DNA of 64,000 nt from a virus: positions 64,001-128,000 of the IMG/VR virus record IMGVR_UViG_3300031754_000001; one strand, written 5' to 3'. The notes under the pieces were generated by a model. The model did not search any database and was not told where the DNA came from. It saw nothing but the letters and a program-made list of their open reading frames with translations. The translations under genes were made by a program, and so were the position numbers. Below are positions 4,049 through 53,442 of the stretch, piece by piece. Numbering within the stretch: the stretch's first letter is position 1; each line of letters begins with the position of its first letter.

Positions 4049-4051
4049 CCG

Positions 4052-7000
4052 ATGGCCACGTTTCCCGGCAAGCCCCCCAACCCCCTCGGCGTCAAGGTCG
4101 AGCTGAGCCTGAACTCAGTCTGGACCGACATCACCGTCTACGTGATGCTCCGGGATCTCATCACGATCTCGAACATGGGCCGCGCTGACGAATCGGCCAG
4201 CATCACCGCGTCCCAGCTCACCCTCACCCTGAGAAACGACGGCCGGTTCACGCCCAAAAACGCGAGCGGCGCCTATTACCCGTATATCGTCCGCAACACC
4301 CAGATCCGCGTGTCGGTCAACGCGACCAGCCTGACAGGGGTGGCCTACAGCCAGTACCGGTATTCCGGGGAGATCGCCTCCTGGCCGCCCAGCTTCGACA
4401 TCAGCCAGCGGGACACCTTCGTGCAGGTCACCGCATCCGGGATCTGGCGGCGCATCTCGGCGAATCAGGCGAATATCGGCAGCGCCTACGCGCGGTACGT
4501 CAGCCTGCAGACCGGCACGCTGGTCCCGGCCGCGTACTGGGCCATGGAAGACGGCACCAACACCACCGGGTTCGTGCTGTCCGAGGGCACCGGGACCAAC
4601 TTCATAGCGACCGGCACGCCGTCTTACGCCGCCGACAACACCAGCTTCGCCGGGTCCAACGCGATCCCCCAGCTCAACACCGCCCGGCTGGCCGGGAATG
4701 TCTCCTCGGGTGCTACGCCGACGAACAACGTGGTCCAGTTCGCGCTGAGCGTCCCGGCCGCCGGGGACAGCACGGGCATCACTTACGCGGCCGGATCCGA
4801 GCTGTGCAAGATCCTGTCCGGCGGCACCATCGGCCGGATCGATATCTCGCTGATCGCCAACCAGCTTCATATCGCCGGGTACCTGACCTCAGCCGGCGGC
4901 ACTGCCCAGTTCTCCGGCACCGTCACGACCAAGGTCAACGGGGTCCCGGTGCTGGTGAGCGTGGAGATCACCCCGAGCGGCGGCAGCATCAACTGGGCGC
5001 TGCGGATCATCAAGCCGGGCGCCGGGTCGGTGCTGGACCAGGTGACCGGCACCCGCGCCGCCAGCTCGATCGCGGCGGTCACCCAGGTCCAGCTCAACGG
5101 CCAGGGCCGGCTGACCGACACCGCCTGCGGTCAGCTCGGCGTGTTCTACGCGGTGCCCACCCTGGTTTCCTCTGCTTTCGCGATCGGCGGGAACGCCGGG
5201 GAAGGCGCCGTGACCCGGTTCAGCCGGCTGTGCGCCGAGTCGAACATTCCCGCCACGGTCATCGGATCCGGCGGCGCCGCGATGGGGCCGCAGGCCGATG
5301 GCACGATGGCCAGCGTCCTGCAGAGCATCGAGGACGCGGACGGCGGGCTGCTGTACGAGACAAGAGACACCTTCGGCCTCGGCTACCGGACGCTGGCCTC
5401 GATGCAGAACCAGTCCGCCGCGGTGTCGTTCGCCTTCACCGCCGGCGTGCTCGGAGCCCCGCTGGTCCCGACGTACGATGACCAGCTCGTCGTCAACCAG
5501 TGGATGGTCACCAACTGGGACGGCTACGCGGCGCTGGCTCAGCTCACCTCCGGGGCCATCTCCGTCCTGCCGCCGCCGAACGGGGTGGGCAGCGGGTACT
5601 CCAGGTCCAAGACGATCAACGCGAGCACGCACGCCCAGGTCAACGCCATCGCCCAGCAGCTCCTGTTCGAGGGCACCGTCGATGACCTGCGCTTCCCGGT
5701 CGTCACGTTCAACTTCCAGCGTGCCCAGGCAGCCCCGTTCTTCGCCTCGGTTCCCGGCCTGCGGATCGGGGACTACCTGTCCGTCTCGTCCCTGCCCGGC
5801 TACCTCGGCGGCGGCACCGCCAAACAGCTCATCTGGGGCTATACCGAGCGGATGGGCGGCGAGATACCCGGCTGGACCATCGACTACAACACGATCAACG
5901 AAGCCCCGTTCGAGACCGCGTTCTCCCCCGGCGTGTTCTCAGTCACCCAGGTCCCGGCCGGAGCCGTTGCCGCCGGCAGTTCCGTGGGCAGCTCGGTGTC
6001 CGGGGCTCAGCTCGGGGCCGGGTCCGTGCCCGCCACCGCCCTGTCCAACACGATCACCGCGCGCACGATCGGGGGCACGCTCCAGATCATCGGCCCGGCC
6101 ACGCCATATGACTGGACGTTCGCCGTTTCCGGGACCCCGGCGGACGTCAATTACTTCATCTGCACCCAGGATCAGTCGCTTCCCATCGCGGTCGGGGATA
6201 CGTTCACCAACTCCGGCGGCCTCGGCGGCCCGTTCACGATCACCTCGGTCGATTCGCCGGCCGGCGGCAACGTCACCGTGCATTTCACCCCGGCCGCCAG
6301 CTCGGTCATGAGCACGGGCACGCTGACCGGCGGGAAGAACGGCGACCAGTGGATCAACTCCTCCGGCGGCAACCAGCTCAGCCAGTGGGCGGCGGGCGCG
6401 TGGACGCCGATCACCTGGGACGGCACGGCCGTGATCAACGCGGGCACGATCACCGCGACCCAGATCCTCGCCGGGACGATCACCGCGACGCAGATCGCGG
6501 CCGGGATCATCATCGCCGGGGTGGTCAACGGCACCACCATCACGGGCGCGACCATCATCGCGGACGGCGCGTCGGGGGAGTTCCTGGCCTATTCCGGGTC
6601 CCCGGCGACCGGGAACCTGATCGTGTCAGTATCCGGGGCAGCGGGCACGGACGGGTTCAGCAATGCCTACGCCCAGGGCCTGGAAGTCCACCTGGGCGGC
6701 ATCGTCCTGGACAACCAGTCATCCGGGCCGACCGCCGTGACCGGTGCCAGCGTCCTGTATTCCAGCACCGCGGGGCGTCCCCGGTACCTGTCGCAATCCG
6801 GGTCAGACTCGATCCTGCAGCGCTCCGGGACGAACGTATCCCAGTTCACGGTCGGGAACACCGCGACGAACACGATCATCTCCGCGCCGCTGGCCTACTT
6901 CGCCAATGAGGGCAACCAGAACAGCGAGTTCGAGATCCAGATCGACGGGACCGCCACCGGGGGGACATCCGGCCAGAACCTGAACTTCGCCCTGTTCTCG

Positions 7001-7351
7001 GACGGAGTGCAGATAGGCGGCGCGTTCACTGTCGGCAGCGGGATCATCGGTGCCGGCATCACCGCGGGCAAGGGATTCGGGTACACGATCCGGTTCCGGC
7101 TGACCGTTCTCACGACCGGAGCCGGGGGGACGGCCAACACCGCGTCCGATGGCGTTTTCTACATAACCGCCACCAACTTCGGCAACAACACGGCCTCGAT
7201 CGGCAACCAGACCCCGGTGGGAGCGGTCGGCCCCGGCAAGGCGTTCGACACGACCAGCGCGCACACGCTCCAGGCGTACGCCAGCTGGGGGGCCACCAGT
7301 ACCGGCCAGGCGCTGACCACCTACACCACCAGGCTGACCCGCAGGAACTAA
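4052..7351 (+). CDS. Minor tail/baseplate protein, probable LamG-like beta-sandwich region and fibre-like C-terminus
   Basis: Directly after TMP. N-terminus resembles actinophage minor tail proteins (WTDIT..GRADE..LTLRNDGRF; PAAYWAMEDG). Gly/Thr/Ser-rich, with AGTITATQI repeats near 6440-6500. Confidence 0.75.
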   Translation: MATFPGKPPNPLGVKVELSLNSVWTDITVYVMLRDLITISNMGRADESASITASQLTLTLRNDGRFTPKNASGAYYPYIVRNTQIRVSVNATSLTGVAYSQYRYSGEIASWPPSFDISQRDTFVQVTASGIWRRISANQANIGSAYARYVSLQTGTLVPAAYWAMEDGTNTTGFVLSEGTGTNFIATGTPSYAADNTSFAGSNAIPQLNTARLAGNVSSGATPTNNVVQFALSVPAAGDSTGITYAAGSELCKILSGGTIGRIDISLIANQLHIAGYLTSAGGTAQFSGTVTTKVNGVPVLVSVEITPSGGSINWALRIIKPGAGSVLDQVTGTRAASSIAAVTQVQLNGQGRLTDTACGQLGVFYAVPTLVSSAFAIGGNAGEGAVTRFSRLCAESNIPATVIGSGGAAMGPQADGTMASVLQSIEDADGGLLYETRDTFGLGYRTLASMQNQSAAVSFAFTAGVLGAPLVPTYDDQLVVNQWMVTNWDGYAALAQLTSGAISVLPPPNGVGSGYSRSKTINASTHAQVNAIAQQLLFEGTVDDLRFPVVTFNFQRAQAAPFFASVPGLRIGDYLSVSSLPGYLGGGTAKQLIWGYTERMGGEIPGWTIDYNTINEAPFETAFSPGVFSVTQVPAGAVAAGSSVGSSVSGAQLGAGSVPATALSNTITARTIGGTLQIIGPATPYDWTFAVSGTPADVNYFICTQDQSLPIAVGDTFTNSGGLGGPFTITSVDSPAGGNVTVHFTPAASSVMSTGTLTGGKNGDQWINSSGGNQLSQWAAGAWTPITWDGTAVINAGTITATQILAGTITATQIAAGIIIAGVVNGTTITGATIIADGASGEFLAYSGSPATGNLIVSVSGAAGTDGFSNAYAQGLEVHLGGIVLDNQSSGPTAVTGASVLYSSTAGRPRYLSQSGSDSILQRSGTNVSQFTVGNTATNTIISAPLAYFANEGNQNSEFEIQIDGTATGGTSGQNLNFALFSDGVQIGGAFTVGSGIIGAGITAGKGFGYTIRFRLTVLTTGAGGTANTASDGVFYITATNFGNNTASIGNQTPVGAVGPGKAFDTTSAHTLQAYASWGATSTGQALTTYTTRLTRRN

Positions 7352-11229: not shown

Positions 11230-11738
11230 GTGCTGAGACGATGCCTGCTGGCACGACATCCGCACAGCGGGTGATCCCCCGCGTCGTGACCGTTCTCCTG
11301 CTGATCATCGCAGGACTCGCGGTCATCCCGTCGCTTGCGGTGCCGGCACAGGCGAGCACCCGGTACGTCGGGGCGCGCATCCTGGACCAGGCCGAGACCC
11401 GGCTCAATGACCCGTACAGCTACGGCTCGGCCGGTCCCTACTACTTCGACTGCAGCGGGCTGGTGGACTGGTCAGCCGTCTCCGTCGGGGAGCGGAACTG
11501 GCCCCGCGACACGTACGGCATCGCCGCCCAGATCGGGTACCGGTTCGTGCTCACCTCGCACCCGGTCCGCGGTGACCTGGCGCTGTGGGGCACCGTACGG
11601 GCGCCGTACCACGTGGAGATCGTGACGGCGTGGAGCGGATGGACATTCGGCGCTGAAACGTCAACATGGGCCGGCCGGGTGACATGGCATTCCAGCGCGT
11701 GGTTCCCGCCGTCGTTCTACCTGCACATCCTCTGGTGA
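11226..11738 (+). CDS. Secreted NlpC/P60 cell-wall peptidase
   Basis: Signal peptide ending AQA; PYSYGSAGP..FDCSGLV..PRDT..GDL..HVEI; GTGA overlap with the upstream gene. Confidence 0.85.
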   Translation: MSAETMPAGTTSAQRVIPRVVTVLLLIIAGLAVIPSLAVPAQASTRYVGARILDQAETRLNDPYSYGSAGPYYFDCSGLVDWSAVSVGERNWPRDTYGIAAQIGYRFVLTSHPVRGDLALWGTVRAPYHVEIVTAWSGWTFGAETSTWAGRVTWHSSAWFPPSFYLHILW

Positions 11739-26424: not shown

Positions 26425-27312
26425 CTACGACGCCAGGAGTTCCGTGCCGGTCCCGTCGCAGCCGCCCGCAAGCCCGGGAACGGTCTCGCCCGCGAGCGCG
26501 AACCCGGCCGCGGACAGCTGATCGCGGACCTCGGCCAGCGACGCCGGGCCGAAATTCCGGATGCGCCGGAGCGATTCCGCGTCGTGGGAGATCAGCTCCC
26601 CGATCGTGCGGATGCTGCCGGCGCCAGGCCGGCTGTCCGCGGAGAGGTCGCCCCGGAGCAGGGCGTTGTGCGTGCGGACGGTCAGGTCCAGCTCCCCGAT
26701 CTCGTCGTCCCCGGTCAGGTCGCAGATCGGGGCGATCTCCTCTTCGTCCGCCTCGGCCGGGCGGGCGGCGACGGCCTCGGCGATCGCGCCGCCGAGCACT
26801 TCGTCATCCGCGCCGGAGACCATCAGCTCGTACGCGTCCCTCAGCGGCCGGGAGTAGTACACGCGGCCGGACACCGGGTTCTTGTACCGGATGCCGTGCT
26901 CCCGGGCGAAAATCCGCAGGTCCCTGTTGTAATCCAGGCGGCTGCGGCGGGCGTTCTCGTTCTCGTGCGGGGGCAGCGGGGGACCGCCGGGGAGCAGGTC
27001 ACGCGGCGTGCACGGGTCACCCGGGCGGCTCAGCGCCGCGCAGTAGGCGCGCACGGTGCGGGCCTTCGGCTTGCGCCCGCCTGGCTGGGCTCCCGTCTCG
27101 TTCTTGGCGATGGCGTCCCGGCTGACGGTCAGCGGGGAGCCGTCGTCGTCCGTCAGGTTCAGCGCGGTGATCGCGTCCGCGAGATCCTGGCGGGACCAGC
27201 CGCGGCTTTCCCGCCACCAGGTCAGCCGGTCAGGATCGATGGCGATGCCTGATACCGGCCGCTTCGGGGGCGCAGGCCGCTGCTCCTGCCTTTCCTGCGT
27301 CATGGCTGACAT
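26425..27312 (-). CDS. Transcription regulator fusion: XRE-type HTH + Lsr2-like DNA-binding domain + RNA polymerase alpha-CTD-like domain
   Basis: HTH RLTWWRESRGWSRQDLA..VSRDAIAKNETG..RKP; middle LRIFAREHGI..GRV..LRDAYE; C-terminal IGELDLTVRTHNAL..IRTIGEL....LRRIRNFGPASLAEV closely resembles the RpoA CTD. Confidence 0.8.
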   Translation of the reverse strand: MSAMTQERQEQRPAPPKRPVSGIAIDPDRLTWWRESRGWSRQDLADAITALNLTDDDGSPLTVSRDAIAKNETGAQPGGRKPKARTVRAYCAALSRPGDPCTPRDLLPGGPPLPPHENENARRSRLDYNRDLRIFAREHGIRYKNPVSGRVYYSRPLRDAYELMVSGADDEVLGGAIAEAVAARPAEADEEEIAPICDLTGDDEIGELDLTVRTHNALLRGDLSADSRPGAGSIRTIGELISHDAESLRRIRNFGPASLAEVRDQLSAAGFALAGETVPGLAGGCDGTGTELLAS

Positions 27313-33837: not shown

Positions 33838-34447
33838 ATGGCGATCACTATTCCCCCCTGTGGCTCTCACTGCGGGATCACCGGCCCCCGCGAAGGCCAC
33901 TGCGATTGCGAGCTGTGCCACGACGGCATGGCGCCTATCGTCATCACCCGCGGCGACCTGCTGACTATCGTGCCGCGGCAGCCGATGTGCGGTCGCTGGT
34001 ACGAGCGCGCCGGAGAGTACCGTCCCTGGATGACCGGGAGCGACCCCGGCTGCCGGTGCGGGGTATCACCGCACGCGCTGCCGTACCAGCACGGCGGGCA
34101 CTGCCCGGTCCGCCAGGACTACGACCGGAAGCGGCTGGGAGACCCGGACGGCGGATGGTGCCCGTGATCTGCGAGACCTGCCCGAAATACGTCAACGTCG
34201 CCCTGTACCGCTGCCCTCACTGCGATCTGCTCTTGTGCCCGCGCTGCCGCAGGTGGTTCACTCCGCCTGCCCGGATCAGGGGCGCAGCATGATCATTCCC
34301 TGCCCGGAATGCCCGAAGGTGTTCGAGGTCAGCGACGCGGACCCGGATGCCACGCTGTCCGACCTGTGGGAACACCTGTACGAGCACGCCCCGGACCACG
34401 ACCGGCGGAAGCAGCTGTTCATCAAGGCCCAGGAGCAGGCGGCATGA
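33838..34447 (+). CDS. Three small Cys/His-rich proteins (33838-34167, 34164-34292, 34289-34447)
   Basis: CxxC/HxxC motifs; chained GTGA/ATGA overlaps. Confidence 0.55.
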
Positions 34448-36282
34448 CGGCCCTTCAGTTCACGCCCCGGAACCAGTGGCAGCCGGCCGCCCCCGCCACA
34501 GTGTTCGGCGAGCTGACCGCGGACGGCACCCAGATCGTCCTGATCGGCCAGGGCAGTGACTGGGACCTGGACCAGATCGCCGCGCGGTTGCGGATGCTGA
34601 CCGCGAATCCCGTGCTGGTACGCGACGCGGACGGCCGGGATACCGACGCCATGCTCGTACCCGCCAGCTGGGCGAGCGTGGTCCAGCTCGGCTTCTCGTT
34701 CAACGGCTTCCCCGGGTTCGCCTGGCTGCCGCAACCCCGGCTGAACGAGTGGATCATCGCCGAGACGGTCCGCCGGACCTCCCCGGTGCCGCCGCTGCCG
34801 GACGATCTCTGGCCGCCGTGGCTGGAACCGCGCCCGTACCAGCTGGACGGCGCCGCGCAGATCGCGGCCGAGGGGAAATTCCTGCTCCTGGACGATCCGG
34901 GCGTCGGGAAAACTATTTCAGCGATCCTCGGCCTGCTGGGACGCCAGCACGCGGGACACGAGATCTTCCCGCTGGTCATCGTCGTCCCGTCCTGGGAGGT
35001 CGGCCGGGCCTGGGCCGATGAGATCGCCGCGTGGGCACCGGGCTGGCCGGAACCGGTCATGCACAAGGGGCCGGACCGGTTCGGCAAGATCACCCGCAAG
35101 CGCGGCCAGCCGCCCGGTGACTCGGTGTTCATCACCACCTACGCCACCCTGCGGGCCGACGCCGCCAGCATGCGCGGCCCGCTAGTCCGGCTGGCGCCCG
35201 CCGCGATGGTAGCCGATGAGTTCCACCTGGCTAAGAACCCCCGGGCTCAGCAGAGCCTCGCGCTGCAGCGAGTCGCCCGGCAGGCCGGCACGTTCGTGGC
35301 CCTGTCCGGCACGCCCATTACCTACGACACAGGTGATGTGCAACCGGTGATGGAGGCTGCCTGGCCGGATGACTGGCCGAGCAAGAAACGGATGACCTCG
35401 CGGTACTGCGCGCGAATCGAAGAGGAGTACGGCGAGCGCATCGTGGGCCTGAACCCGGCTGCCGCGCCGGAATTCTTCGCGATCATGGACCGGAACATGC
35501 GCCGGGTCGCCAAGGCCGACGTGCTGCCCTGGCTGCCGCCGAAAATCTGGTCGGTGCGCCGCCCGGACATCCCGGATGAGTGGATGAAAGCGTACCGGAC
35601 TATGGAGGAGGACATGCTGGCGCAGCTGCCGGACGGCTCCGAGCTGCCGGTGATGTCCGTCCTGGTCAAGATGATGCGGCTGAGCCAGCTCGCGTCCTGC
35701 GCGGCCGACGTGGAGCGCACCGAGGAATGGGACGAGAACCTGCAGGCGGTCGTGCCGAAGTACGCGGTCACGCTGAAGCCGCCCAGCTGGAAGGCGGACT
35801 CGCTGCTGGAAGTCATGGCCGAACGGCCCGGGGCACCCGTCGTCGCGTTCACCGCGTCCCGCCAGCTGGCCATGATCACCGGGCAGGCGTGCGAGCAGGC
35901 GGGGCACCGGACCGGGTACATCACCGGGATCGGCGACGGCATCACCAGCAGAACCCGGCAGAAGGCGATCGATGACTTCCAGGCCGGCAAGCTGGACGTG
36001 ATCGTGGCCACCGCCAAGGCCGGCGGCACCGGGATCACGCTCACCCGCGCGGGCACCGCAGTGTTCCTGCAGCGGAACTGGGAGCTGTCCGCCGGGGTCC
36101 AGCCGGAAGACCGGCTTCATCGCATCGGCCAGGAGCACGAGTCCGTGGAGATCATCGACATTGTGGCCGAAAACACGGTCGAAAGCAGGGTAAGGCAGCG
36201 ACTCAGGGAGAAGGCGGGCATGCTGGGTGAGCTAGTACGAGACCGGCGTATCGTGACTGAACTTCTCGGGGGGATCAGGTGA
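34444..36282 (+). CDS. SNF2-family (SF2) helicase
   Basis: RPYQ, DDPGVGKT, DEFH, LSGTP, GGTGITLT, QPEDRLHRIGQ. Confidence 0.9.
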   Translation: MTALQFTPRNQWQPAAPATVFGELTADGTQIVLIGQGSDWDLDQIAARLRMLTANPVLVRDADGRDTDAMLVPASWASVVQLGFSFNGFPGFAWLPQPRLNEWIIAETVRRTSPVPPLPDDLWPPWLEPRPYQLDGAAQIAAEGKFLLLDDPGVGKTISAILGLLGRQHAGHEIFPLVIVVPSWEVGRAWADEIAAWAPGWPEPVMHKGPDRFGKITRKRGQPPGDSVFITTYATLRADAASMRGPLVRLAPAAMVADEFHLAKNPRAQQSLALQRVARQAGTFVALSGTPITYDTGDVQPVMEAAWPDDWPSKKRMTSRYCARIEEEYGERIVGLNPAAAPEFFAIMDRNMRRVAKADVLPWLPPKIWSVRRPDIPDEWMKAYRTMEEDMLAQLPDGSELPVMSVLVKMMRLSQLASCAADVERTEEWDENLQAVVPKYAVTLKPPSWKADSLLEVMAERPGAPVVAFTASRQLAMITGQACEQAGHRTGYITGIGDGITSRTRQKAIDDFQAGKLDVIVATAKAGGTGITLTRAGTAVFLQRNWELSAGVQPEDRLHRIGQEHESVEIIDIVAENTVESRVRQRLREKAGMLGELVRDRRIVTELLGGIR

Positions 36283-39377: not shown

Positions 39378-39592
39378 CGGCCGGCGAGGAGGCACGCGAT
39401 GCCGCGCGCGAGAAGCCCGGGTAGGCGGGCCGGGACCTGCAGCCACTGCCAATGGCGATCGATCACATTCCCGGCAGGTCCCGGCCGCCAGACAGACCGG
39501 GGTACCTTTCTCCCCCCGCGAGTGAACGTGTCGGGCGCTTACACGATACCCCGCGGGCTCGCCGGCTACTCCTGCCAGACCCAGGGGGACAG

Positions 39593-40087
39593 ATGAACAG
39601 CACGGAAATCAGCGGCACGTCATGCCCGCAGTGCGATGACGGCAACTGGAACGACCTTGGCTGCATGACGTGCGGCCTGGAATTCTTCCCGCCGTCCGAG
39701 GCGTACCAGGCTGCGGTACCGGTAAGCCTGCGCATAAAACGACTTCGCGCAAGCTGGGCTCCGGCTCCGCGCCTGACCCCGGCTGAAGACTGTTTCTGGG
39801 GGGCTTGTCTCGCCCGGGGTTACCCGTGGACTGACGATGTACTGCCGCAGGCTCGCATCGGTGCCTACCGGGCGGATTTCCTGCTAGCCGGAGCCAGGAT
39901 CGTTATCGAGATCGATGGCTTCAGCAATCACGCGAAAACCGCTGACATCACGCGCGACCGGCAGCGGCAGCGCTGGCTGCAAGGTCAGGGCTATCAGGTC
40001 ATCCGGTTCAGTAACACCGAAATCCAGCAGGCCCCGGAACGATGCGCGGCTGAAACTGACGCGCTGATTCGCGGGATGCTGTCATGA
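39593..40087 (+). CDS. DUF559 / Vsr-like endonuclease with N-terminal zinc ribbon
   Basis: TPAE..W, Q..IG.YRADF, IVIEIDG..H, D..RQ.WL..GYQVIRF. Confidence 0.85.
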   Translation: MNSTEISGTSCPQCDDGNWNDLGCMTCGLEFFPPSEAYQAAVPVSLRIKRLRASWAPAPRLTPAEDCFWGACLARGYPWTDDVLPQARIGAYRADFLLAGARIVIEIDGFSNHAKTADITRDRQRQRWLQGQGYQVIRFSNTEIQQAPERCAAETDALIRGMLS

Positions 40088-43000
40088 ACGCCCAGGTCCG
40101 GCAGGACGCGCCGGTCTACGCGTCGGCCTGCGCGGATTACTACCTGGCCGGGTGGACGTGCGTGATCCCGGTGCCGCCGGAAGCCAAGTTCCCTCCGCCC
40201 GGCGGGTTCACCGGGGCTGGCGGCCGGGACACCACCCCAGAGGACATCGCCGGCTGGGCGGAGCAGCTGCCCGGTTACTCGATCGCGCTACGGATGCCGG
40301 ACGGCGTGATCGGCATCGACGTCGATGAGTACGCCAAGGGCGAGACCGTCAAGCATGGCGCCGCGACCGTAACCGGGGCCGAGGGGGAATGGGGCGCGCT
40401 GCCGCCGACATGCTCATCGACTGCCCGCGGCCAGGATCAGCCGAGCCGCATCCTGTTCTACCGGGTGCCGGCCGGCCGGTACGCCAGCCAGCTCGGCCCG
40501 GATGTCGAGATCATCCAGCGGCATCACCGCTACGCCGTGGTCGCGCCGTCGCCGCACTCCGCTACCGGGACGCCGTATCAGTGGTACGGCCCGGACGGTT
40601 CCCCCCTGGGCGGGAAAGTCCCGGGACCGGGAGAACTGGCCGCTCTGCCGGAAGCGTGGATCCAGGGCCTGGCCGAGGGCGCCGCGGCAGCCAGCCCGAT
40701 GGCAGCCAGTATCGGCGAGGCCGGGCAGCTGCTGGCCTGGCTGGAGGCTGAGACCGGGCAGGTGTGCACCGACATGGCGCACGCGACGGCGGCGATCCTG
40801 GCCGAGACCACGGCCGCGCACCCCGGCTCCCGGCATGACCTGATGACCAGGGGCATCTACGAGCTGGTCCAGCTGACCGCCGAGGGCCACGGCGGTTACG
40901 GCACGGTCATCGCCCAGCTGCGCGGGCTATGGGGCGAGCTGACCGCCGGGGAAGACCGGGACGCCGAGTTCGGCGACATGATCACCACCGCGGCGCGCAA
41001 GGCCGTCACTGCCCACGGCCCGGTCCCGCAGGCAGCCGATCCGTGCCGGGTGTTCGGCCGCGGGCTGCCCCGGTTCGCCGCGCCCGCACCGGACGTGCCG
41101 CCGGGTGCGGGCCTAGATGATGACGAGCTGCCGCCGCCCGAGGCGCCGAGGTTCTGGTCGCCGTGGGGAGAAGACGGGATCGGCGTGCTGCCATTCGACC
41201 CGCCCGCCGGGCTGGACGGGATGCTGGCCCGCGACGTGCTGGGCCGTACCTGGCCGGTACTGCGGTACGCCCCGGACGCGGGCGCGTGGATCAGGCGCGG
41301 CCCGGACAAGTGGGACGTGATCAAGGGCGACTTGTCCAAATGGGCTGTCGACCTGGTGAGCGTGCTCATGCCGCCCGGTGACCCGGACGCCGCCCAGGGC
41401 AGCCCGGAACGGCTTCAGGCTGACCGGCGCAAGCGGTTCATGTCGAACTCCCCGGCCAACGCGATCGCCGGGAAGATGAACGCGCAGGTCGCCGCCGGGC
41501 AGCACCCGTCCGCAGTGGAACTGGCCGCGCTGGACACTGACCGGGAGATCCTGTGGGCCGGGGGCATGCCGTTCGACCTGCGGAACTCCGACGAGGCTCC
41601 GGCGATCTCGCGGTGGACCGACCCGGGCACCCCGCACCTGCACAGCGCGGGCGTGGTCCCGGAGCTGCGCCCCGTGCCGCGATGGGACGCGTTCCTGGCC
41701 GCGGTCTGGCCGGACGAGGACGTGCGGGCCTGGGCACTGCGCATCCTGTCGATCTCGTTCACCGGCTACCCGGACAAGGCGCTGCCCATCCTGCTCGGCG
41801 ACACCGACCGCGGTAAGACCTCGCTGATCATGCTGCTGATGTCCGTGCTGGGCAGTTACGCCCACGTGGCCGATGCCCGGCTGCTCGCCCCGGCTGACAA
41901 GTCACACGCCTCGATCGTGTACGCGCTGCGGGGCCGGCGGCTGTCGTTCATCGATGAGGCACCGCGCACCGGTCAGCTGGCTACTGAACGGCTGAAGCAG
42001 ATCACGGGCGGCGCGGACCTGACCGGCAACCGGATGGGCGAGAACCCCATCACGTTCCCCACCACTCACACGCTGATCCTGACCGCCAACCCCGAGCACG
42101 AGCCGGTGCTGACCGACGCGGCCATTCGCCGCCGGGTCCGGCTGATCCCGTGCAACGGCGATCCCGCCGCGGTCATCGCGGCCAGGGCGGCGATCGGCGC
42201 GGAGCACGGTGCCGCGTGGCGGGCCGAGGCACCCGGCGTGCTGGCCCGGATGATGGCCGAGACAGCCCGCTGGCTGGCTGACCCGCACAGCTCCGGCAAC
42301 GAGTCCGCGCCGGAAGCAGCGGCCCTGGCGGCGAGTGAGATCATGGCGAGCCAGGACCTCACGCTGCAGTGGCTGCGCGAGGAATGCGAGGATTTCGAGC
42401 GCGGCACCAGGAGCCGTGATCTCTACCTGGCGTTCACGGAGAGTTGCCGGCGGATGGCGGTGAACCCGGCTACGATGCCGTCCGAAACACGGTGGGGACG
42501 GAGGCTGACCGAACTCGGCTACCCCCCATATAAGCGGACGGACGCCAACTACCGGACCCTCCGGATCAAGCCCCCGCAGGTTTTCATGCCCGGACCAGCG
42601 GCACTGAGCGGTCAGAGCGGCGGTTCCGCCCGGCCGCATGGAGGGTCTGAGCCTGAAAATGGAGGGTTCATGGAGGGTTCGGGGTCAGGGCCTCAACCCT
42701 CCATGAACGGAAACACAGCAGGTCAAACCCTCCATGAAACCATCCATATGGAGGGTATGGAGGGTCAGTCAACGTATATAGCACACACACACGCGCGCAC
42801 ACGCGCGCACACGCAGGGGGGTAAAGACCAAACCCTCCATACCCTCCAACCTTCCATACCGCCCCCGGCGGACCCCCCCGCAGCGGAAAACCCCGGTTCG
42901 TCACCGGGCGTGACATCACCGGATGCCGCCAGGGCGGGCAAGCCCCGCAAGGCAGCCAGGCCCAGGGCCGTGAAGGTGCGGCCGGACCCGGTGCTGGAAG

Positions 43001-44871
43001 GCCCGGTGTACCAGCTGCCGGTCATCGTGGCGCGGAATCCGGACGGCGGCGAGCCGCTGGTGCTGTCGTGCTCGCCGGACGACGCGAGGGCGGCGGCAGA
43101 GGGCGCGCTGGCCGGCATGCACGTGGACTGCGAGACCTCGGGGTACCCGCCTGGTCACGCGGATTTCGCGTTGCGTACCGTCCAGCTGGGTGATGAGCAG
43201 ATGGCGGCGGTACTGGACCCGGCTGATCCGGAACAGGCGGCGGCAGTCACGGATCTGGTGGCGCGGGCGCGGGTACTGCACGCGCATTCGGCGGCGGCTG
43301 ACCTGGTGCCGCTCGCCGCAGCCGGGCTCGGCGACGCCGAGGCGATGTGGGCGAAGATGACCGATTCGGTGCTGATCGCCAAGCTGGCCGATCCGTCGCT
43401 GGCCGGGTCGGATGAGAACGAGCTGAAAAAGCTGGCCCGCGATCTGCTGGGAGGCTATGCGGTCAGCCCTCCTGCGGAGAAGGCCCGCAGCGCCCTGTTC
43501 AAGTCCGGTGGCTGGCTGACCGATACCACGGCGCTGACCCCGCCGGAGAAATCCGGATGGGGCCAGGTCAAGTCCGGTTGCGAGGTCATGGCCCGGTACG
43601 CCGGGTCCGACGTGCTGGACCTGGCCGCGGTGCTGCGCGTGCTGCCGGAGCCCGACCAGGCCGTGCTGGCGCGCGAGCGCGAGTTCCAGCGGATGTGCGC
43701 CCGGGTGAGCCATGCCGGGTTCCGGCTGGACCCGGTGCACATCCGGGCCAAGATCGCCGAGTACACCGCAGCCCGCGAAGCTGCCCGCGAGCTGGTGGCC
43801 GGCCTGTGCCCGGATATCACCAACCCGTCCTCCACCAAGGACGTCCCGGCCGCCCTGCTGGGCATGGGCATCCCGCTCGGCCGCACGAAGGACGGCAACC
43901 CGAGCGCCGCCAAGGCCGTGCTGGAGCCGCTGGCGGCCGACGAGAGCTATGAGCATCACGAATTGCTGCGCGGCATCCTGGACTACCGGCATGACGTGAC
44001 CACGCTCGGGCTGCTGCTGGAGCCCCTGGGAAGGCTGTGCGAGCACGGCGACGGCCGGATGCGCCCGGTGGTCTACACGATCAACGCCGACACCGGCCGG
44101 ACCAGCTGCGTCCGTCCCAACGGGCAGCAGTTCTCCCGGCAGGGCGGCATCCGCGCGTGCGTCATCGCGGATGAGGGCATGGCCGGAGTCTCGGCTGACT
44201 TCTCTGGCGTGGAGATCCGGGTCGGCGCCGCGCTGTCCGGTGACAGGGACCTGCTCGCCGCGGAGCTGTCCACGTACTGCCTGGCGTGCGCGTCCGATCC
44301 GTGTGCCTGCGGGCAGGGCCAGACCGGGCTGCACTGGATGGCCGCGCGGATGGCGTTCGGCGCGGGCGCCACCAAGGAAGACCGTTACAACTCCAAGCGG
44401 ATCATCTTCTCCAAGATGTTCGGCGGCGGCCCGAAGTCCGGTGCGGCCCAGGTGGGCGTGCCGGTGGAGGCGGCGTACGCGGTGCACAGCGCGTTCGAGC
44501 AGATCGCGCCTGCGTTCACCGAGTGGGATAAGCAGATGCGCGCCTACGCGGAGGCCGGCAACCGCGGTTTCCGGGCATATTCCGGCCGGGTCATCTGGCT
44601 GCCGCGCGGGCGCAGTCACGCGGCCGGCAATTACGCGATCCAGGGCTCGGCCCGGGAGCTGCTGGTGGACGGGTGCCTGCGCTGGCACCGGACCCGCTGG
44701 GGCCATCTGCCGCTGCTGCCGATCCATGACGAGATCCTGGTATGGGTTCCGGCTGAGGAGGCGCTGGAGGCCCGGGAGACGCTGAAGGCGTGCATGGCCG
44801 GCGAGCTGTACGGCGTGCCGATCGAGGCCAAGGCCGACGAGCCGTTCCTGGCCTGGCCGGATTCTTCGTGA
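40084..44871 (+). CDS. Fusion: bifunctional Prim-Pol + D5-like SF3 helicase + family A DNA polymerase with 3'-5' exonuclease
   Basis: Prim-Pol IGIDVD..YAVVAPS.H..G.PY.W; helicase GDTDRGKT/FIDE/ILTAN; exonuclease DCETSG..YAGSD; PolA TGRTS..PN.QQ, ADFSGVEIR, R...K...F, NYAIQG, IHDEI. One uninterrupted 1595-aa ORF. Confidence 0.9.
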   Translation: MNAQVRQDAPVYASACADYYLAGWTCVIPVPPEAKFPPPGGFTGAGGRDTTPEDIAGWAEQLPGYSIALRMPDGVIGIDVDEYAKGETVKHGAATVTGAEGEWGALPPTCSSTARGQDQPSRILFYRVPAGRYASQLGPDVEIIQRHHRYAVVAPSPHSATGTPYQWYGPDGSPLGGKVPGPGELAALPEAWIQGLAEGAAAASPMAASIGEAGQLLAWLEAETGQVCTDMAHATAAILAETTAAHPGSRHDLMTRGIYELVQLTAEGHGGYGTVIAQLRGLWGELTAGEDRDAEFGDMITTAARKAVTAHGPVPQAADPCRVFGRGLPRFAAPAPDVPPGAGLDDDELPPPEAPRFWSPWGEDGIGVLPFDPPAGLDGMLARDVLGRTWPVLRYAPDAGAWIRRGPDKWDVIKGDLSKWAVDLVSVLMPPGDPDAAQGSPERLQADRRKRFMSNSPANAIAGKMNAQVAAGQHPSAVELAALDTDREILWAGGMPFDLRNSDEAPAISRWTDPGTPHLHSAGVVPELRPVPRWDAFLAAVWPDEDVRAWALRILSISFTGYPDKALPILLGDTDRGKTSLIMLLMSVLGSYAHVADARLLAPADKSHASIVYALRGRRLSFIDEAPRTGQLATERLKQITGGADLTGNRMGENPITFPTTHTLILTANPEHEPVLTDAAIRRRVRLIPCNGDPAAVIAARAAIGAEHGAAWRAEAPGVLARMMAETARWLADPHSSGNESAPEAAALAASEIMASQDLTLQWLREECEDFERGTRSRDLYLAFTESCRRMAVNPATMPSETRWGRRLTELGYPPYKRTDANYRTLRIKPPQVFMPGPAALSGQSGGSARPHGGSEPENGGFMEGSGSGPQPSMNGNTAGQTLHETIHMEGMEGQSTYIAHTHARTRAHTQGGKDQTLHTLQPSIPPPADPPAAENPGSSPGVTSPDAARAGKPRKAARPRAVKVRPDPVLEGPVYQLPVIVARNPDGGEPLVLSCSPDDARAAAEGALAGMHVDCETSGYPPGHADFALRTVQLGDEQMAAVLDPADPEQAAAVTDLVARARVLHAHSAAADLVPLAAAGLGDAEAMWAKMTDSVLIAKLADPSLAGSDENELKKLARDLLGGYAVSPPAEKARSALFKSGGWLTDTTALTPPEKSGWGQVKSGCEVMARYAGSDVLDLAAVLRVLPEPDQAVLAREREFQRMCARVSHAGFRLDPVHIRAKIAEYTAAREAARELVAGLCPDITNPSSTKDVPAALLGMGIPLGRTKDGNPSAAKAVLEPLAADESYEHHELLRGILDYRHDVTTLGLLLEPLGRLCEHGDGRMRPVVYTINADTGRTSCVRPNGQQFSRQGGIRACVIADEGMAGVSADFSGVEIRVGAALSGDRDLLAAELSTYCLACASDPCACGQGQTGLHWMAARMAFGAGATKEDRYNSKRIIFSKMFGGGPKSGAAQVGVPVEAAYAVHSAFEQIAPAFTEWDKQMRAYAEAGNRGFRAYSGRVIWLPRGRSHAAGNYAIQGSARELLVDGCLRWHRTRWGHLPLLPIHDEILVWVPAEEALEARETLKACMAGELYGVPIEAKADEPFLAWPDSS
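42638..42857. repeat. Iteron-like ATGGAGGGT/ACCCTCCAT array with alternating purine-pyrimidine tract: probable replication origin
   Basis: Five forward copies (42638, 42659, 42670, 42748, 42757) and six exact or near reverse copies (42696, 42727, 42739, 42832, 42841, 42849), flanking TATATA and a (CA)n(CG)n tract. Confidence 0.7.
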
Positions 44872-47090: not shown

Positions 47091-47927
47091 ATGCCGCTGC
47101 GGGACGCGGGCGCGCCGCCCGGTTACGTGATCGGGTACGACGCCATCCGGGTGAACGCCGCCAGCCTGCCGAAGGGCGCGCAGGCGTACGCGGGGTACTC
47201 CACCGGTTCCGGCGTCGTGCCGTGGCCGGATTCGCTGTTCGCCTCCTACGCCACTGCGCTCGGCCCGTGCCTGCGCATCGACCAGGACCCGGCCGCCTCG
47301 GATCCCACCGCGGACTACCTGGACGTGGAGCGCGGCGCGGCCACGGTCGCCGACTGCCCCGGCTGGGCCAGGCAGGCGATGGCTGACATCAGGGCGGTCC
47401 GGCGCAGGGGCCAGCGCTCCCCCGCCATCTACGCGTCCGCCTCGGCCGTCACCTCCGTGGTCAACGCGCTCCTCGCCGGCGGCATCCCCTCCGGGGTCGG
47501 CCTGATCATCGCCGACTGGAACCTCACCGAGGTGACGGCGATCGCCGGCGTGCTGGCCGCGGCCGGGCCGTTCCCGGTGGTCGGCATCCAGTTCGCCGAT
47601 CCCGGGCCGTACGACGTCAACATCTTCAGCCGGGCGTGGCTGGCCGGCCAGGCCGGGGGCGCGCCCGCGCCTGCCCCGGTTCCCGTCCCCGTCCCGGCCG
47701 CGGTGATCACGCTCTCGCTCACGCTGCCCGTCCTGGTCCTGGACGCCGCGGGCGAGGACGTGAAGTCGGCCCAGGGCCTGCTGAACGCCCGCGGCTACCC
47801 GGTGACCGTCGATGGGACGTACGGCCCGGCCACCAGGGCGGCGGTCACCGCGTTCCAGCATGCTGCCGGGCTGGCCGCGGACGGGATTACCGGGCACGAC
47901 ACCTGGCTGGGGCTGCACAAGCGCTGA
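47091..47927 (+). CDS. Endolysin: glycoside-hydrolase-like (GH25/DUF1906-type) domain + peptidoglycan-binding domain
   Basis: AGY..DVERG..PAIY..IADW..IQF..YDVN; Pro/Val linker; GEDVKSAQ.LL..VDGTYG.AT..AV..FQ..GL.ADGI.G..TW. Confidence 0.8.
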   Translation: MPLRDAGAPPGYVIGYDAIRVNAASLPKGAQAYAGYSTGSGVVPWPDSLFASYATALGPCLRIDQDPAASDPTADYLDVERGAATVADCPGWARQAMADIRAVRRRGQRSPAIYASASAVTSVVNALLAGGIPSGVGLIIADWNLTEVTAIAGVLAAAGPFPVVGIQFADPGPYDVNIFSRAWLAGQAGGAPAPAPVPVPVPAAVITLSLTLPVLVLDAAGEDVKSAQGLLNARGYPVTVDGTYGPATRAAVTAFQHAAGLAADGITGHDTWLGLHKR

Positions 47928-50935: not shown

Positions 50936-52454
50936 TCATCGTGCTTCCTGCTTATCCAGGCCCAGCCGGAGCCGGTACACGTGCTCGATGTGGGCGACGT
51001 CGGCCCGGTAGCGGCGCGTCTCGGTCTCGATCCGGTCCAGGTGATCGTTCATCGCGTTCTGGAGCAGGACGTGACGTTCCTTCTCGGCCGCCTCGGCGGG
51101 GGTCAGGGGCAGGGCGTCATTCATGGCAGTCTCCGTTTTCAGGCCCCGTTGCAGGGCGGGTCATTCAGGCTCAGGCCGGGCCAGGACACCTGCTCGCGGA
51201 CCCGGCGTCTCCGTCCGGCCAGTCCGGTGATCCCGGCGGCGGGCTCGGGCGGCGGCGGCGGGACGGCCGGGAGCAGTTCCGCGCCCGAGCGGAAGGTCTC
51301 CCGGCCATCGGCGTACTCCCGGACCGTCCTGGTCACGCGCCCGTCCGTCCGGGTGATCACCTGGGTGAAACCGCCGGCGGACAGCTGGACGGCGCGCTGG
51401 AGGGCGCCGTGCTTCCCGCACAGGCCGTCCAGGGTGGCCGGGAAGTACTCCGGCTCGCCCTGGCCGGGAGTGACCGCGTAGAAGCTACCCAGCCGGGTGA
51501 CGGATGCGGTCATGACCAGCAGCCTCCTCGCGGGTTTCCGGCCGGATTTCAGCTGGCGGGTCGCAGGCCTTGCTCAGCTCCCGGTGGATCGTGACGAACT
51601 CGGAGTGCAGGGATCTCAGCGCCGGGTTCAGGTCGGCCCACAGGCCGAGCTGGCGGACCAGGTATTCCAGCCTGGACAGGGGCGGGCGGGTTCGCTGCAG
51701 CTCATTCGCATGACCGTAGCTGGTCATGTCAGTCCACCTCCGGGTTGGCGATTCCGTATACGTCCACCTGGTTGTCGCTGGTTGTGCCCGTTTCCGCCGG
51801 GCGGGCGCAGTCCTGGTTATGCCTGGCGGCCCGGATGCCGTTAGCCAGCGCGGTCTCGGAGGAGCCCCACATGTACCTGGATGCGTGCTCGCGCTTGTCC
51901 GGGCCGGTCAGGATGTAGCGCCACGTCTGCCGTCCGTCCGGGGCCTGCTGCGTGTCCAGCTCGTACCCGCGTGGCAGGCCGGGGATGGCGGGCCGTTCCT
52001 GGCCGTCCAGCAGGATCGCCAGCGCGGTCAGGACGTGCGCGATCGCCGACTGCGCCAGCCCGTGGTAAGCCGCCTCGCCGGGTGCGCGGGAGCGCAGGGT
52101 GCGCAGGTCAGCCTGCGCCTGCGTGATGTGCTGGGCGATGGTCACGGTCTCGGTCATTGGTCAGTTCTCCTTGCTTGTGCCCGCGCGGCCGGTCATCGGT
52201 TATCTTCCGCCGCGCAGGGTCCGGCGCTCATCTTCGCGGATTTCCCGCTCCCGGACCTTCTCGCGGACTTTGCGGTAGACGTTGTTGAGCGCCATGGTGG
52301 TCAGCCCCCACCCGCCGACCAGCAGCCACGTCGGCAGCGAGTTGTCCGGGGCCAGTGCCGCGCCGGCGAGAACCAGCCCGATCCCGGCCAGGATCAGGAG
52401 GCTCGTCCAGCCGGTGAGTTTTCCGTTGTCGTTCATGTCAGTGCTCCTCGTCAT
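50936..52454 (-). CDS. Run of small hypothetical proteins (50936-51124, 51139-51513, 51485-51727, 51729-52157, 52200-52454 membrane)
   Basis: Same-strand packed ORFs with GGAG-type RBS. Confidence 0.55.
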
Positions 52455-53442
52455 TATCGTCTTCTGGTTCGGCGTAGCCCTGGTCCCGCAGGTACGCCAG
52501 CACCTCGTCCCAGTTCTGGGTCAGGGCGCGGAGCTGCGCTTTCTCCCGTTCTTCGCGATCCAGCCGGGCCTGGCGCAGGGCCAGGTCCACGTGCCCCCGG
52601 ATGGCCTCGTCTACCAGGGCGTCCAGCGCGGCGGGTTCGATCGCGTCCAGCTCCCAGCACCGGGCCTCGCCGGGCTCGTCCACGTCCGGGTCGTGGAACC
52701 GGTCGATGTAGTCGGCGGCCCGGCTGTCGGTGATCTTGGCCGGGCTCGGCGGCGGGTTCAGCGCGAGCACCTGGTCCATGTTCAGCGCGATCCGGTCCAC
52801 CGTCACGACGGCCCGGAACATCGCCAGCCGGTCCTCGATGTCCCGGGTCATGTCCAGCCCGGACGGGTCATGGTCGCCCAGGTGGATGATCGTGCACTTG
52901 CGGCCGTCCCGGGTCCGGCGGCGCAGCCGCAGTGCGGCGTCGTGCATCGCGGACTGGGAGACGTAGCCCTTGCAGGCGAACGTGGTCACGTCCCAGCGGC
53001 TAGCCGGGCGGCTGATGACTTCGGCCAGGGCTTCCTTCTCCACCCACGCCTCGACGTACTCGGGCTGGCCGTCCCAGTGCGTGATGCCGTACTGGTCCGC
53101 GCTGGACTCCACGATGTCGCGCGGGCTGTCCCAGCCGGAGTCCCCGCCCGCCGGCCGGCGCCCGCGGTCGGTGAGGTGGCTCCAGTCGATCATCCCGGCG
53201 ATCCGCCCGTTGGACACCAGGTCCCCGAGCCATTTGTAGTTCCGCTCGGTGTTCTTGGTGCCGGACACCGGGTCGGCCCGGCTGTCCGGGAAGGCATCCG
53301 TGGCGATGAAACGGTAATAAAGCTGCCTGAGTGTCAGCTGGTAACCCTGGTTCGCGTAGTCCTGGCAGATCCGCTCGGCCTCGGTGACGACATCACGGGC
53401 AGCGGCGGTGAACGTGCGCGGTTCGTACAGGACTTTGCTCAT
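52438..53442 (-). CDS. Topoisomerase VI subunit A / Spo11-like Toprim protein
   Basis: LTLRQLYY winged-helix with Tyr; VEK.A; KGY.S; LGDHDPSG Toprim DxD; WELDA. Confidence 0.75.
   Translation of the reverse strand: MSKVLYEPRTFTAAARDVVTEAERICQDYANQGYQLTLRQLYYRFIATDAFPDSRADPVSGTKNTERNYKWLGDLVSNGRIAGMIDWSHLTDRGRRPAGGDSGWDSPRDIVESSADQYGITHWDGQPEYVEAWVEKEALAEVISRPASRWDVTTFACKGYVSQSAMHDAALRLRRRTRDGRKCTIIHLGDHDPSGLDMTRDIEDRLAMFRAVVTVDRIALNMDQVLALNPPPSPAKITDSRAADYIDRFHDPDVDEPGEARCWELDAIEPAALDALVDEAIRGHVDLALRQARLDREEREKAQLRALTQNWDEVLAYLRDQGYAEPEDDNDEEH

Follow-up and report, generated by a model that had tools for sequence, protein, structure and literature searches.

The DNA stretch considered here (the window, 64,000 nucleotides) comprises bases 64001-128000 of the linear 139,583-bp virus record IMGVR_UViG_3300031754_000001, for which CheckV gives a completeness of 66%, and it carries on its plus strand a single open reading frame (ORF), 40084..44871, that starts with ATG, contains zero internal stops, and encodes a protein of 1595 aa (P0001). 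From its N-terminus onward, P0001 appears to consist of an archaeo-eukaryotic primase (AEP), a D5/P4-alpha-type superfamily 3 (SF3) helicase with its collar, a winged-helix domain that is a candidate for origin binding, a linker of ~170 aa, and a family A DNA polymerase (PolA) with a 3'-5' exonuclease. We interpret the gene as a phage replicase in one chain in which the DNA encoding the linker is most likely the replication origin, and would put the probability of this reading at roughly two in three. The linker is more than a tether: the DNA that encodes it holds a conserved iteron array beside the putative origin-binding winged helix.

For the N-terminal half of the protein, the Pfam Prim-Pol model (PF09250) matches aa 18-189 (E 3.2e-20; 73.6 bits against a cut-off of 22.8), and the PHROGs family phrog_1156, annotated as 'DNA primase', spans aa 8-824 (E 1.1e-94). 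D79, D81, H147, and H148 are unchanged in 21 full-length homologues of 49-70% identity, the set to which all statements of invariance below refer, and we take D79/D81 to be the AEP catalytic acidic pair and H147/H148 the conserved His residues. The region that follows, aa 190-379, is without any Pfam family match and includes the invariant residues C228, H251, D252, H269, and C321, which could represent a metal site or a primase helper domain. The helicase is recognizable from its SF3 motifs, which the earlier note on this DNA had listed and which are present in the translation, with Walker A (GDTDRGKT) at aa 572-579, Walker B (FIDE) at 622-625, and motif C (ILTAN) at 665-669; within the ATPase, K578, D624, E625, and N669 are invariant. 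Pfam DUF5906 matches aa 572-678 (E 6.1e-7; 30.5 bits against a cut-off of 27.6), the P4-family primase C-terminal region model TIGR01613 aligns with aa 530-788 (E 6.7e-26; 90.9 bits, below its curated cut-off of 108.7), and a sequence search of the PDB pairs the helicase half with African swine fever virus (ASFV) C962R (E 4.5e-8). A model of aa 380-835, built with AlphaFold2 (AF2) from a 31-sequence alignment, has a predicted local distance difference test score (pLDDT) of 89.7, and its Foldseek matches include ASFV PrimPol C962R, which is hexameric or dodecameric (E 2.3e-17, TMq 0.63-0.69), as well as monkeypox virus (MPXV) E5 and vaccinia D5 (E ~1e-13). Because the helicase core models onto hexameric D5-type helicases, a hexamer ring that tethers several polymerases is plausible.

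The C-terminal half is covered by PHROGs phrog_17 ('DNA polymerase') from aa 1012 to 1586 (E 8.7e-73) and by Pfam DNA_pol_A (PF00476) from aa 1241 to 1583 (E 1.1e-32; 113.9 bits against a cut-off of 34.3), and a sequence search of the PDB matches the polymerase domain to Taq and Klenow (E 1e-16 to 1e-13). D1015, E1017, D1073, Y1172, and D1176 are invariant, as are D1372, R1434, K1438, H1548, D1549, and E1550. The former presumably correspond to Exo I-III (D1015/E1017, D1073, and Y1172/D1176) and the latter to polymerase motifs A, B, and C (D1372, R1434/K1438, and H1548/D1549/E1550). The exonuclease model PF01612 left P0001 unmatched at E <= 0.01 and does match relatives, and the PolA half is predicted to be exonuclease-proficient and capable of proofreading. 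Taken together, the Pfam, PHROGs, PDB, and AF2 results bear out what the earlier note had described, namely a single stop-free ORF of 1595 aa with Prim-Pol, SF3 helicase, and PolA parts, including the exonuclease and polymerase A/B/C motifs.

Between these halves, the DNA encoding the linker contains eight exact copies of the 9-mer ATGGAGGGT, starting at 42638, 42659, 42670, 42748, and 42757 on the plus strand and, as the complement, at 42696, 42727, and 42832, together with three degenerate copies at about 42739, 42841, and 42849. All exact copies in the window fall within the 203 bp of 42638-42840, compared with 0.42 copies expected, and a count of eight was reached in none of 100 shuffles; the whole 139.6-kb record has no further exact copies beyond these, and the reversed control pattern occurs zero times. 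An unbiased 9-mer cluster scan of the 64-kb window ranks the linker array first. The array begins ~60 bp past the winged-helix coding region, and spacings of 21, 11, 9, and 9 bp separate copies. Translated, the copies read HGG, NGG, or MEG, and the complement QPSM or QTLH, and since they occur in both orientations and in several frames, selection acts on the DNA and not on the peptide. Repeats at the protein level were considered as an explanation and rejected on the same grounds.

The array recurs among relatives. Alignment-based scans produced 100 loci, 64 viral and 36 genomic, after a scan of viral contigs with the single protein had given no match, and 49 of the 100 carry anchors for the winged helix and the exonuclease within a single uninterrupted frame, a set that is reduced to 41 when identical proteins are dropped. 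Each of the 41 non-identical loci was scanned from end to end for clusters of an 8-mer present in both orientations. In 35, the top-ranked cluster is located in the linker, which averages 4% of the locus length, and the remaining six, read by eye, have the same layout with degenerate repeats. An AT-rich dip or an alternating tract occupies the equivalent place in the 20 related loci inspected and in the six degenerate cases, the dip consisting of 20-mers of 25-50% G+C in genomes of ~65-70%. The iteron sequence itself varies by lineage, with ACCCTCCAT here and ACCCGTCAC/G, ACCCTCCAC, ACCCTGCAC, ACCCTTCAC, ACCCGCC, and AACTG-types in relatives, whereas the order of the groups, the AT-rich dip, and the CA/CG tract recur. 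The reading frame stays open through the AT-rich linker DNA in all 49 anchor-filtered loci.

The domain immediately ahead of the array is a plausible reader of these repeats. Modelled on its own by AF2, aa 735-832 folds as a winged helix, with an average pLDDT of 88-96 for the 10-residue blocks from residue 31 on and of 80 for block 21-30. VIA-align ranks 1ka8_A, the origin-binding domain of phage P4, first for this segment (Z 9.0, root mean square deviation 2.0, 74 aligned), followed by the ASFV PrimPol C-terminus (Z 8.7) and the RFX DNA-binding domain (Z 8.6), and each of its leading rows is a winged helix. The columns of a 40-row alignment covering the helicase and winged-helix region were ranked as predictors of whether base 5 of the iteron is G or T. 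Column 822 (Asn here) came first among the 451 tested, mispredicting a single row of the 40, followed by column 817 of the same hairpin with 5 errors, and all remaining columns gave at least 7. Residue 822 lies in the wing, two residues ahead of the invariant Arg824; Asn822 is accompanied by T at base 5 in 14 of 14 rows and Lys or Trp by G in 20 of 20 (34/34 together). In a tree computed without the wing columns, there are eight independent pairs that differ at 822 across all branches, and for those on starred branches the iteron changes concordantly in 7/7 (sign test p 0.016, the floor for seven), with six rows that have H, V, R, or A at 822 kept in the tree and outside the pair test. Five rows were left out before this test, namely L023, L025, and L031, which have the AACTG... 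iteron type, L034, which is truncated, and L036, the iteron of which is undeterminable. Some of these switches separate very close relatives, such as L009 and L011. This residue-to-base pairing points to a putative recognition, by P0001, of the iterons within the DNA that encodes its linker.

Table 1. Parts of the replicase gene, its linker DNA, and the adjoining upstream gene, in window coordinates (strand is left blank for DNA elements).
Feature	Coordinates	Strand	Basis or remark
DUF559/MTES_1575 endonuclease-like gene	39452..40087	+	Directly upstream; stop overlaps replicase start
Fused replicase P0001	40084..44871	+	ORF list and translation; 1595 aa
AEP Prim-Pol domain, aa 18-189	40135..40650	+	PF09250; D79, D81, H147, H148 invariant
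Conserved region between primase and helicase collar, aa 190-379	40651..41220	+	Within phrog_1156
D5/P4-type collar and SF3 ATPase, aa 380-734	41221..42285	+	DUF5906, TIGR01613, PDB, AF2/Foldseek
C-terminal winged-helix domain, aa 735-832, putative origin-binding	42286..42579	+	AF2, VIA-align; N822 in wing
Pro/Gly/Ser/His-rich linker, aa ~833-1005, presumed disordered	42580..43098	+	Poor conservation in 21-homologue alignment
Origin-like iteron array	42638..42860		Copies of the 9-mer ATGGAGGGT
GTATATAG, then 35-nt alternating purine/pyrimidine (CA/CG)n tract	42774..42815		Between iteron groups; candidate unwinding element
3'-5' exonuclease domain, aa ~1012-1200	43117..43683	+	phrog_17 and NF011539 matches begin at aa 1012
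Family A polymerase domain, aa 1241-1583	43804..44832	+	PF00476; Taq and Klenow matches

For replication, the winged helix would bind the iterons within its own gene, the AT-rich or alternating tract would be opened, and ring helicases would assemble on both sides, as they do for SaPI Rep/PriRep and P4 alpha; the N-terminal AEP would then make primers, and the tethered PolA domains would extend and proofread them. Our definition of an iteron origin, with iterons in two orientations and an AT-rich centre beside the initiator gene, comes from the text of PMC9371898 on the Staphylococcus aureus pathogenicity islands (SaPI), and the array here has this SaPI-like layout. As described there, the C-terminal winged helix of SaPI Rep/PriRep5 binds iterons situated directly after rep, which flank an AT-rich centre. 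Rep and PriRep5 are self-loading helicase-initiators, as P0001 would be, with a winged helix and downstream iterons in opposite orientations, and in PriRep5 a primase is likewise fused to the helicase-initiator. The SaPI ORF, however, ends before the origin and includes no polymerase, whereas translation of P0001 continues through the array into the exonuclease and PolA. A second precedent is the alpha protein of phage P4, since the origin is bound by a C-terminal domain in D5-family members including P4 alpha, according to the section of PMC4889955 that deals with them. P4 gp-alpha belongs to the same helicase family (TIGR01613 region), and 1ka8 is the top structural match for aa 735-832, but its primase is DnaG-type (same section of PMC4889955) and it carries no polymerase.

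The same recognition could serve a different purpose, in which the repeats are operators through which the winged helix autoregulates the gene or blocks transcription of its polymerase half, and replication starts elsewhere. The covariation speaks for recognition of the repeats by the protein and not for initiation, and the incompleteness of the record and the position of the GC-skew minimum likewise suit such a role. The cumulative GC-skew minimum of the record is at ~98-101 kb and the array at 106.6-106.9 kb; its nearness lends weak support to an origin, and the 6-8 kb between them, in a region where the skew is confounded by a switch in gene orientation, favours a start site elsewhere. We nevertheless consider operators quite unlikely, as phased iterons in two orientations flank an AT-rich and alternating tract and are kept in 35/41 loci, with six degenerate, as this layout is like that of the iteron origins of self-loading SF3-type initiators in the relevant part of PMC9371898, and as the putative binding domain shares its fold with the P4 alpha origin binder.

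Besides the skew, a number of observations weigh against our interpretation of the linker DNA as an origin that is read by the protein. Foldseek gives the winged helix no match with an E-value of 0.001 or better (best 0.016), the VIA-align Z of ~9 is modestly above the background of 7-8 stated by the tool, and the helicase, judged by its sequence, appears akin to TIGR01613 and falls short of membership by the NCBIfam cut-off. As for the covariation, column 822 was picked after an earlier mutual-information scan, the iteron classes of L035, L003, L033, L038, L040, and L041 were assigned by eye, and the mutual-information scan of iteron class against protein in 30-residue windows gave no clear peak outside the linker. 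The nearest relative and one isolate-genome copy (L003 and L081, discussed below) carry frame breaks inside the exonuclease/polymerase part. Because the record is only 66% complete by CheckV, a second origin or more replication genes may be present in the absent part. Finally, the idea that the origin was first intergenic and was later read through is unsupported. The iteron cluster scan found no array between the primase and PolA genes of the Streptomyces phage Attoomi, at pas55 of the Actinoplanes phage phiAsp2, or around the PolA genes that stand alone in L078 and L080, so that this route is without direct support from Attoomi and phiAsp2; as all four are distant relatives, such a history is conceivable.

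It is clear that the fusion extends well beyond this record. A search of protein collections gave 314 matches at E <= 0.001, and among the 119 non-self matches listed, 99 cover at least 95% of P0001 at 46-69% identity. Named sources include Nocardioides, Micromonospora, Jatrophihabitans, Labedaea, and Prauserella, in which the protein is labelled merely 'DNA polymerase', and isolate genomes from several genera contain the fusion. Among phages and prophages of actinobacteria, the family is widespread. For the 42 of the 100 loci with near full-length matches, the ones used for the open-frame count, a single open frame runs across the whole match in 40. The two exceptions have frame breaks within the exonuclease/polymerase part, outside the linker; these are L003, the nearest relative at 78% identity, which lies on a viral contig of 210 kb and is broken near 11330-11368 (aa ~1190), and L081, a copy in an isolate genome that is broken near 11333-11338 (aa ~1085). 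Natural split forms were considered for both and rejected, as the breaks lie inside the domain part and not at a domain border; we read them as errors or decay, and something programmed is also conceivable. In the 49 anchor-filtered loci, the frame runs uninterrupted from the winged helix across the linker into the beginning of the exonuclease domain, and the breaks in L003 and L081 come further on.

These findings leave very little room for the possibility that the gene is an assembly artefact or a decaying pseudogene, with two genes joined by a mis-assembled repeat. A linker that is rich in repeats and odd in composition is a typical site of assembly failure, and the only sequencing run found to contain it is possibly the source sample and hence not independent. 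A Logan contig from this run (X1; 30,507 nt, depth 10.4) nonetheless covers 41800-43600 with 0 differences and 0 gaps, and no stop or frameshift of the kind that the earlier note had named as the mark of such an artefact is present; given the possible identity of the samples, the contig checks the assembly and does not provide an independent sample. The same fusion is also present in isolates belonging to several genera, the catalytic residues are invariant throughout, and the polymerase inteins of relatives point to genes under selection. We thus regard an artefact as scarcely credible.

A more substantial alternative is that P0001 is a polyprotein in name only, the halves of which separate in cells through internal initiation or cleavage of the linker, leaving no tether to the ring. 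The linker is long and poorly conserved, the iteron here contains GGAGG together with in-frame ATGs at 42670, 42748, and 42757, and related phages use separate adjacent genes; in Attoomi, a resolvase, a primase of 813 aa, and, after a 96-bp gap, a DNA polymerase I of 619 aa are separate genes. Most relatives' iterons, however, have neither ATG nor GGAGG (for example, ACCCGTCAC), and an internal start is therefore not conserved. The frame is moreover open through AT-rich DNA in 49/49 loci, which separate translation would not need, and the breaks that do occur are found only outside the linker. On balance, we view separate halves as unlikely and continue to favour a single-chain replicase with an origin in its linker DNA.

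Several of the fused relatives depart from P0001 at the N-terminus. In L022-L024, L035, L038-L041, and L082, fused ORFs of 1547-1732 aa have a first ~340-970 residues that tblastn leaves unaligned to P0001. Pfam scans of seven such ORFs (among them L023, L035, L038-L040, and L082) detected DUF5906, the exonuclease, and PolA, with D5_N in three, and Prim-Pol was unmatched in all seven; the unaligned N-termini may represent a divergent or swapped primase module. The linker array is the top cluster in L022-L024, L039, and L040, degenerate versions were seen by eye in L035, L038, and L041, and a repeat cluster in the middle of the ORF was seen in L082, which is outside the 49-locus anchor set. In another instance, the same replicase locus is present twice, ~47 kb apart, on one contig of 101,680 bp from a metagenome-assembled genome (MAG) (L074 and L077), which may be a concatemer-type assembly of a ~47-kb phage.

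The general design has precedents. Kazlauskas, Krupovic, and Venclovas (2016; PMC4889955), in the passage concerned, name two polypeptides that join primase, helicase, and polymerase, these being gp55 of Lactococcus phage 1706, with a family B polymerase (PolB), and Pas55 of the Actinoplanes phage phiAsp2, which is there described as a DnaG-type primase, SF3 helicase, and PolA. Pas55 is similar to P0001 in coming from an actinophage and in ordering primase, SF3 helicase, and PolA along one chain, and in phiAsp2, as here, the fusion gene is closely preceded by a small gene and a gene for a helicase. BLASTP, however, aligns only its C-terminal ~280 aa (P0001 aa 1323-1591; 31%, E 1e-18), and its N-terminus is DUF3854/Toprim-like and not AEP in a protein of 1415 aa. 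By this sequence comparison, Pas55 and P0001 are parallel inventions and not orthologues. The gp55 protein, a 'four-in-one replicase' that was characterized biochemically in 2025 and, in the part of that report concerned, is credited with direct hand-off from primase to polymerase (PMC12205980), likewise places helicase, AEP primase, and polymerase in one chain, but its polymerase is of family B and its helicase is listed before its primase. The text of the gp55 paper on polymerase family, fusion, and PrimPol makes no mention of an origin-coded linker, and no search of it for origin or iteron terms was made.

For family A polymerases, the sections on fusions in a 2023 reclassification (PMC10201439) place AEP-PolA fusions only in the 'Hot Spring 1' cluster (Verrucomicrobia, Planctomycetota, and Nitrospirae), in addition to the apicoplast protein PREX, in which Toprim and a DnaB-type helicase precede PolA. 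These resemble P0001 in joining an N-terminal priming or unwinding module to PolA; the Hot Spring 1 fusions, however, come from other phyla and no SF3 helicase is named for them in that passage, and the text on PolA fusions does not mention an actinobacterial one. P0001 is not of the PREX type, as Pfam detects in it neither Toprim nor a DnaB family, and the record is without DnaB_C. Poxvirus D5, MPXV E5, and ASFV C962R share with P0001 an AEP N-terminus, a D5-type hexameric SF3 helicase, and a winged-helix-like C-terminal domain, whereas they belong to eukaryotic viruses, have no fused polymerase, and are 12-16% identical. The fused form was present in none of 2402 matching cultured phage records (>= 80% coverage) and none of 489 matching plasmid records. 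We found no AEP, D5-type SF3, and PolA fusion described for Actinobacteria in the portions of the literature covered, and the supplements of PMC4889955 and PMC10201439 may hold cases; nor did we find a description of an origin that is translated as a linker.

The earlier note had proposed an independently assembled all-in-one replicase. Its independence from PREX and Pas55 holds, and its rarity and novelty do not, with 314 matches, 49 loci, and a general layout that has been in print since 2016 (as stated in the passage of PMC4889955 cited above); a common and previously described architecture is what the note itself had named as grounds for refutation. As the fusion is a further case of a known theme, it would be wrong to present P0001 as a unique 'single-polypeptide replisome'.

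What the linker array offers instead is a candidate origin, open to testing, in a family that is widespread among phages and prophages of actinobacteria, some of them phages of ~140-210 kb. We found no origin reported for these elements in the literature searched, and the predicted binding domain with its one residue-to-base pairing is concrete and checkable. It also places a coding sequence under double constraint, combining continuity of the protein with a cis-acting DNA element, with AT-rich repeats kept free of stops in every related locus examined. It is tempting to go further and regard the gene as a whole replicon in one ORF, in which initiator, origin, primase, helicase, and proofreading polymerase are united, the tether is the translated origin, and a simple, evolvable code links residue 822 to base 5; we advance this only tentatively and think it will probably prove too strong. 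If such a code were real, the protein of each lineage would stay matched to its own origin. In an actinobacterial cell, the ORF alone might then replicate any DNA into which it is placed, lineages would be mutually orthogonal replicons where their iterons differ, and a one-gene replicon could serve as a compact orthogonal replication module for Streptomyces-type hosts.

With regard to genome context, the nearest relatives are carried by viral contigs of 158-210 kb, which makes a large soil phage with a high-GC actinobacterial host the probable source. No RNA datasets are listed as containing the sequence. P0001 is the sole DNA_pol_A match across the 139,583-bp record, and no DnaB_C, Pol III alpha, beta clamp, or second PolA was found in this 66% complete record, a lack of other replicative enzymes that fits a self-sufficient replicase, with a third of the genome missing. 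The ATG of the replicase shares four bases with the stop of the preceding ORF on the same strand, the endonuclease-like gene of Table 1. Further upstream lies a gene for an SNF2-type helicase (34309-36282, plus strand), and elsewhere in the window are an endolysin-like peptidoglycan-binding protein (47091-47927, plus strand) and a homologue of phrog_6247, 'DNA topoisomerase' (52438-53442, minus strand). The product of 26425-27312 (minus strand) matches HTH_31 at its N-terminus, with a score below the cut-off, and at its other end matches the C-terminal domain of the RNA polymerase alpha subunit (E 1.6e-10).

The polymerase module has features of its own among relatives. Three different intein-like inserts, each starting with Cys and ending with HN or GN followed by Cys or Ser, interrupt the polymerase domain; in P0001 numbering, they consist of 242 aa after S1341 in L019, 349 aa after F1442 in L002, inside the motif B region, and 259 aa after Y1517 in L008, and HNH_3 is present in some long database homologues. 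A stand-alone exonuclease/PolA of the P0001 lineage, 722 aa in length, is encoded in a Pseudonocardiaceae MAG (L080, 7635-9803) downstream of a gene for a 1417-aa TrwC relaxase/AAA_30 protein (2832-7085), an arrangement that suggests that the polymerase module travels on conjugative elements as well.

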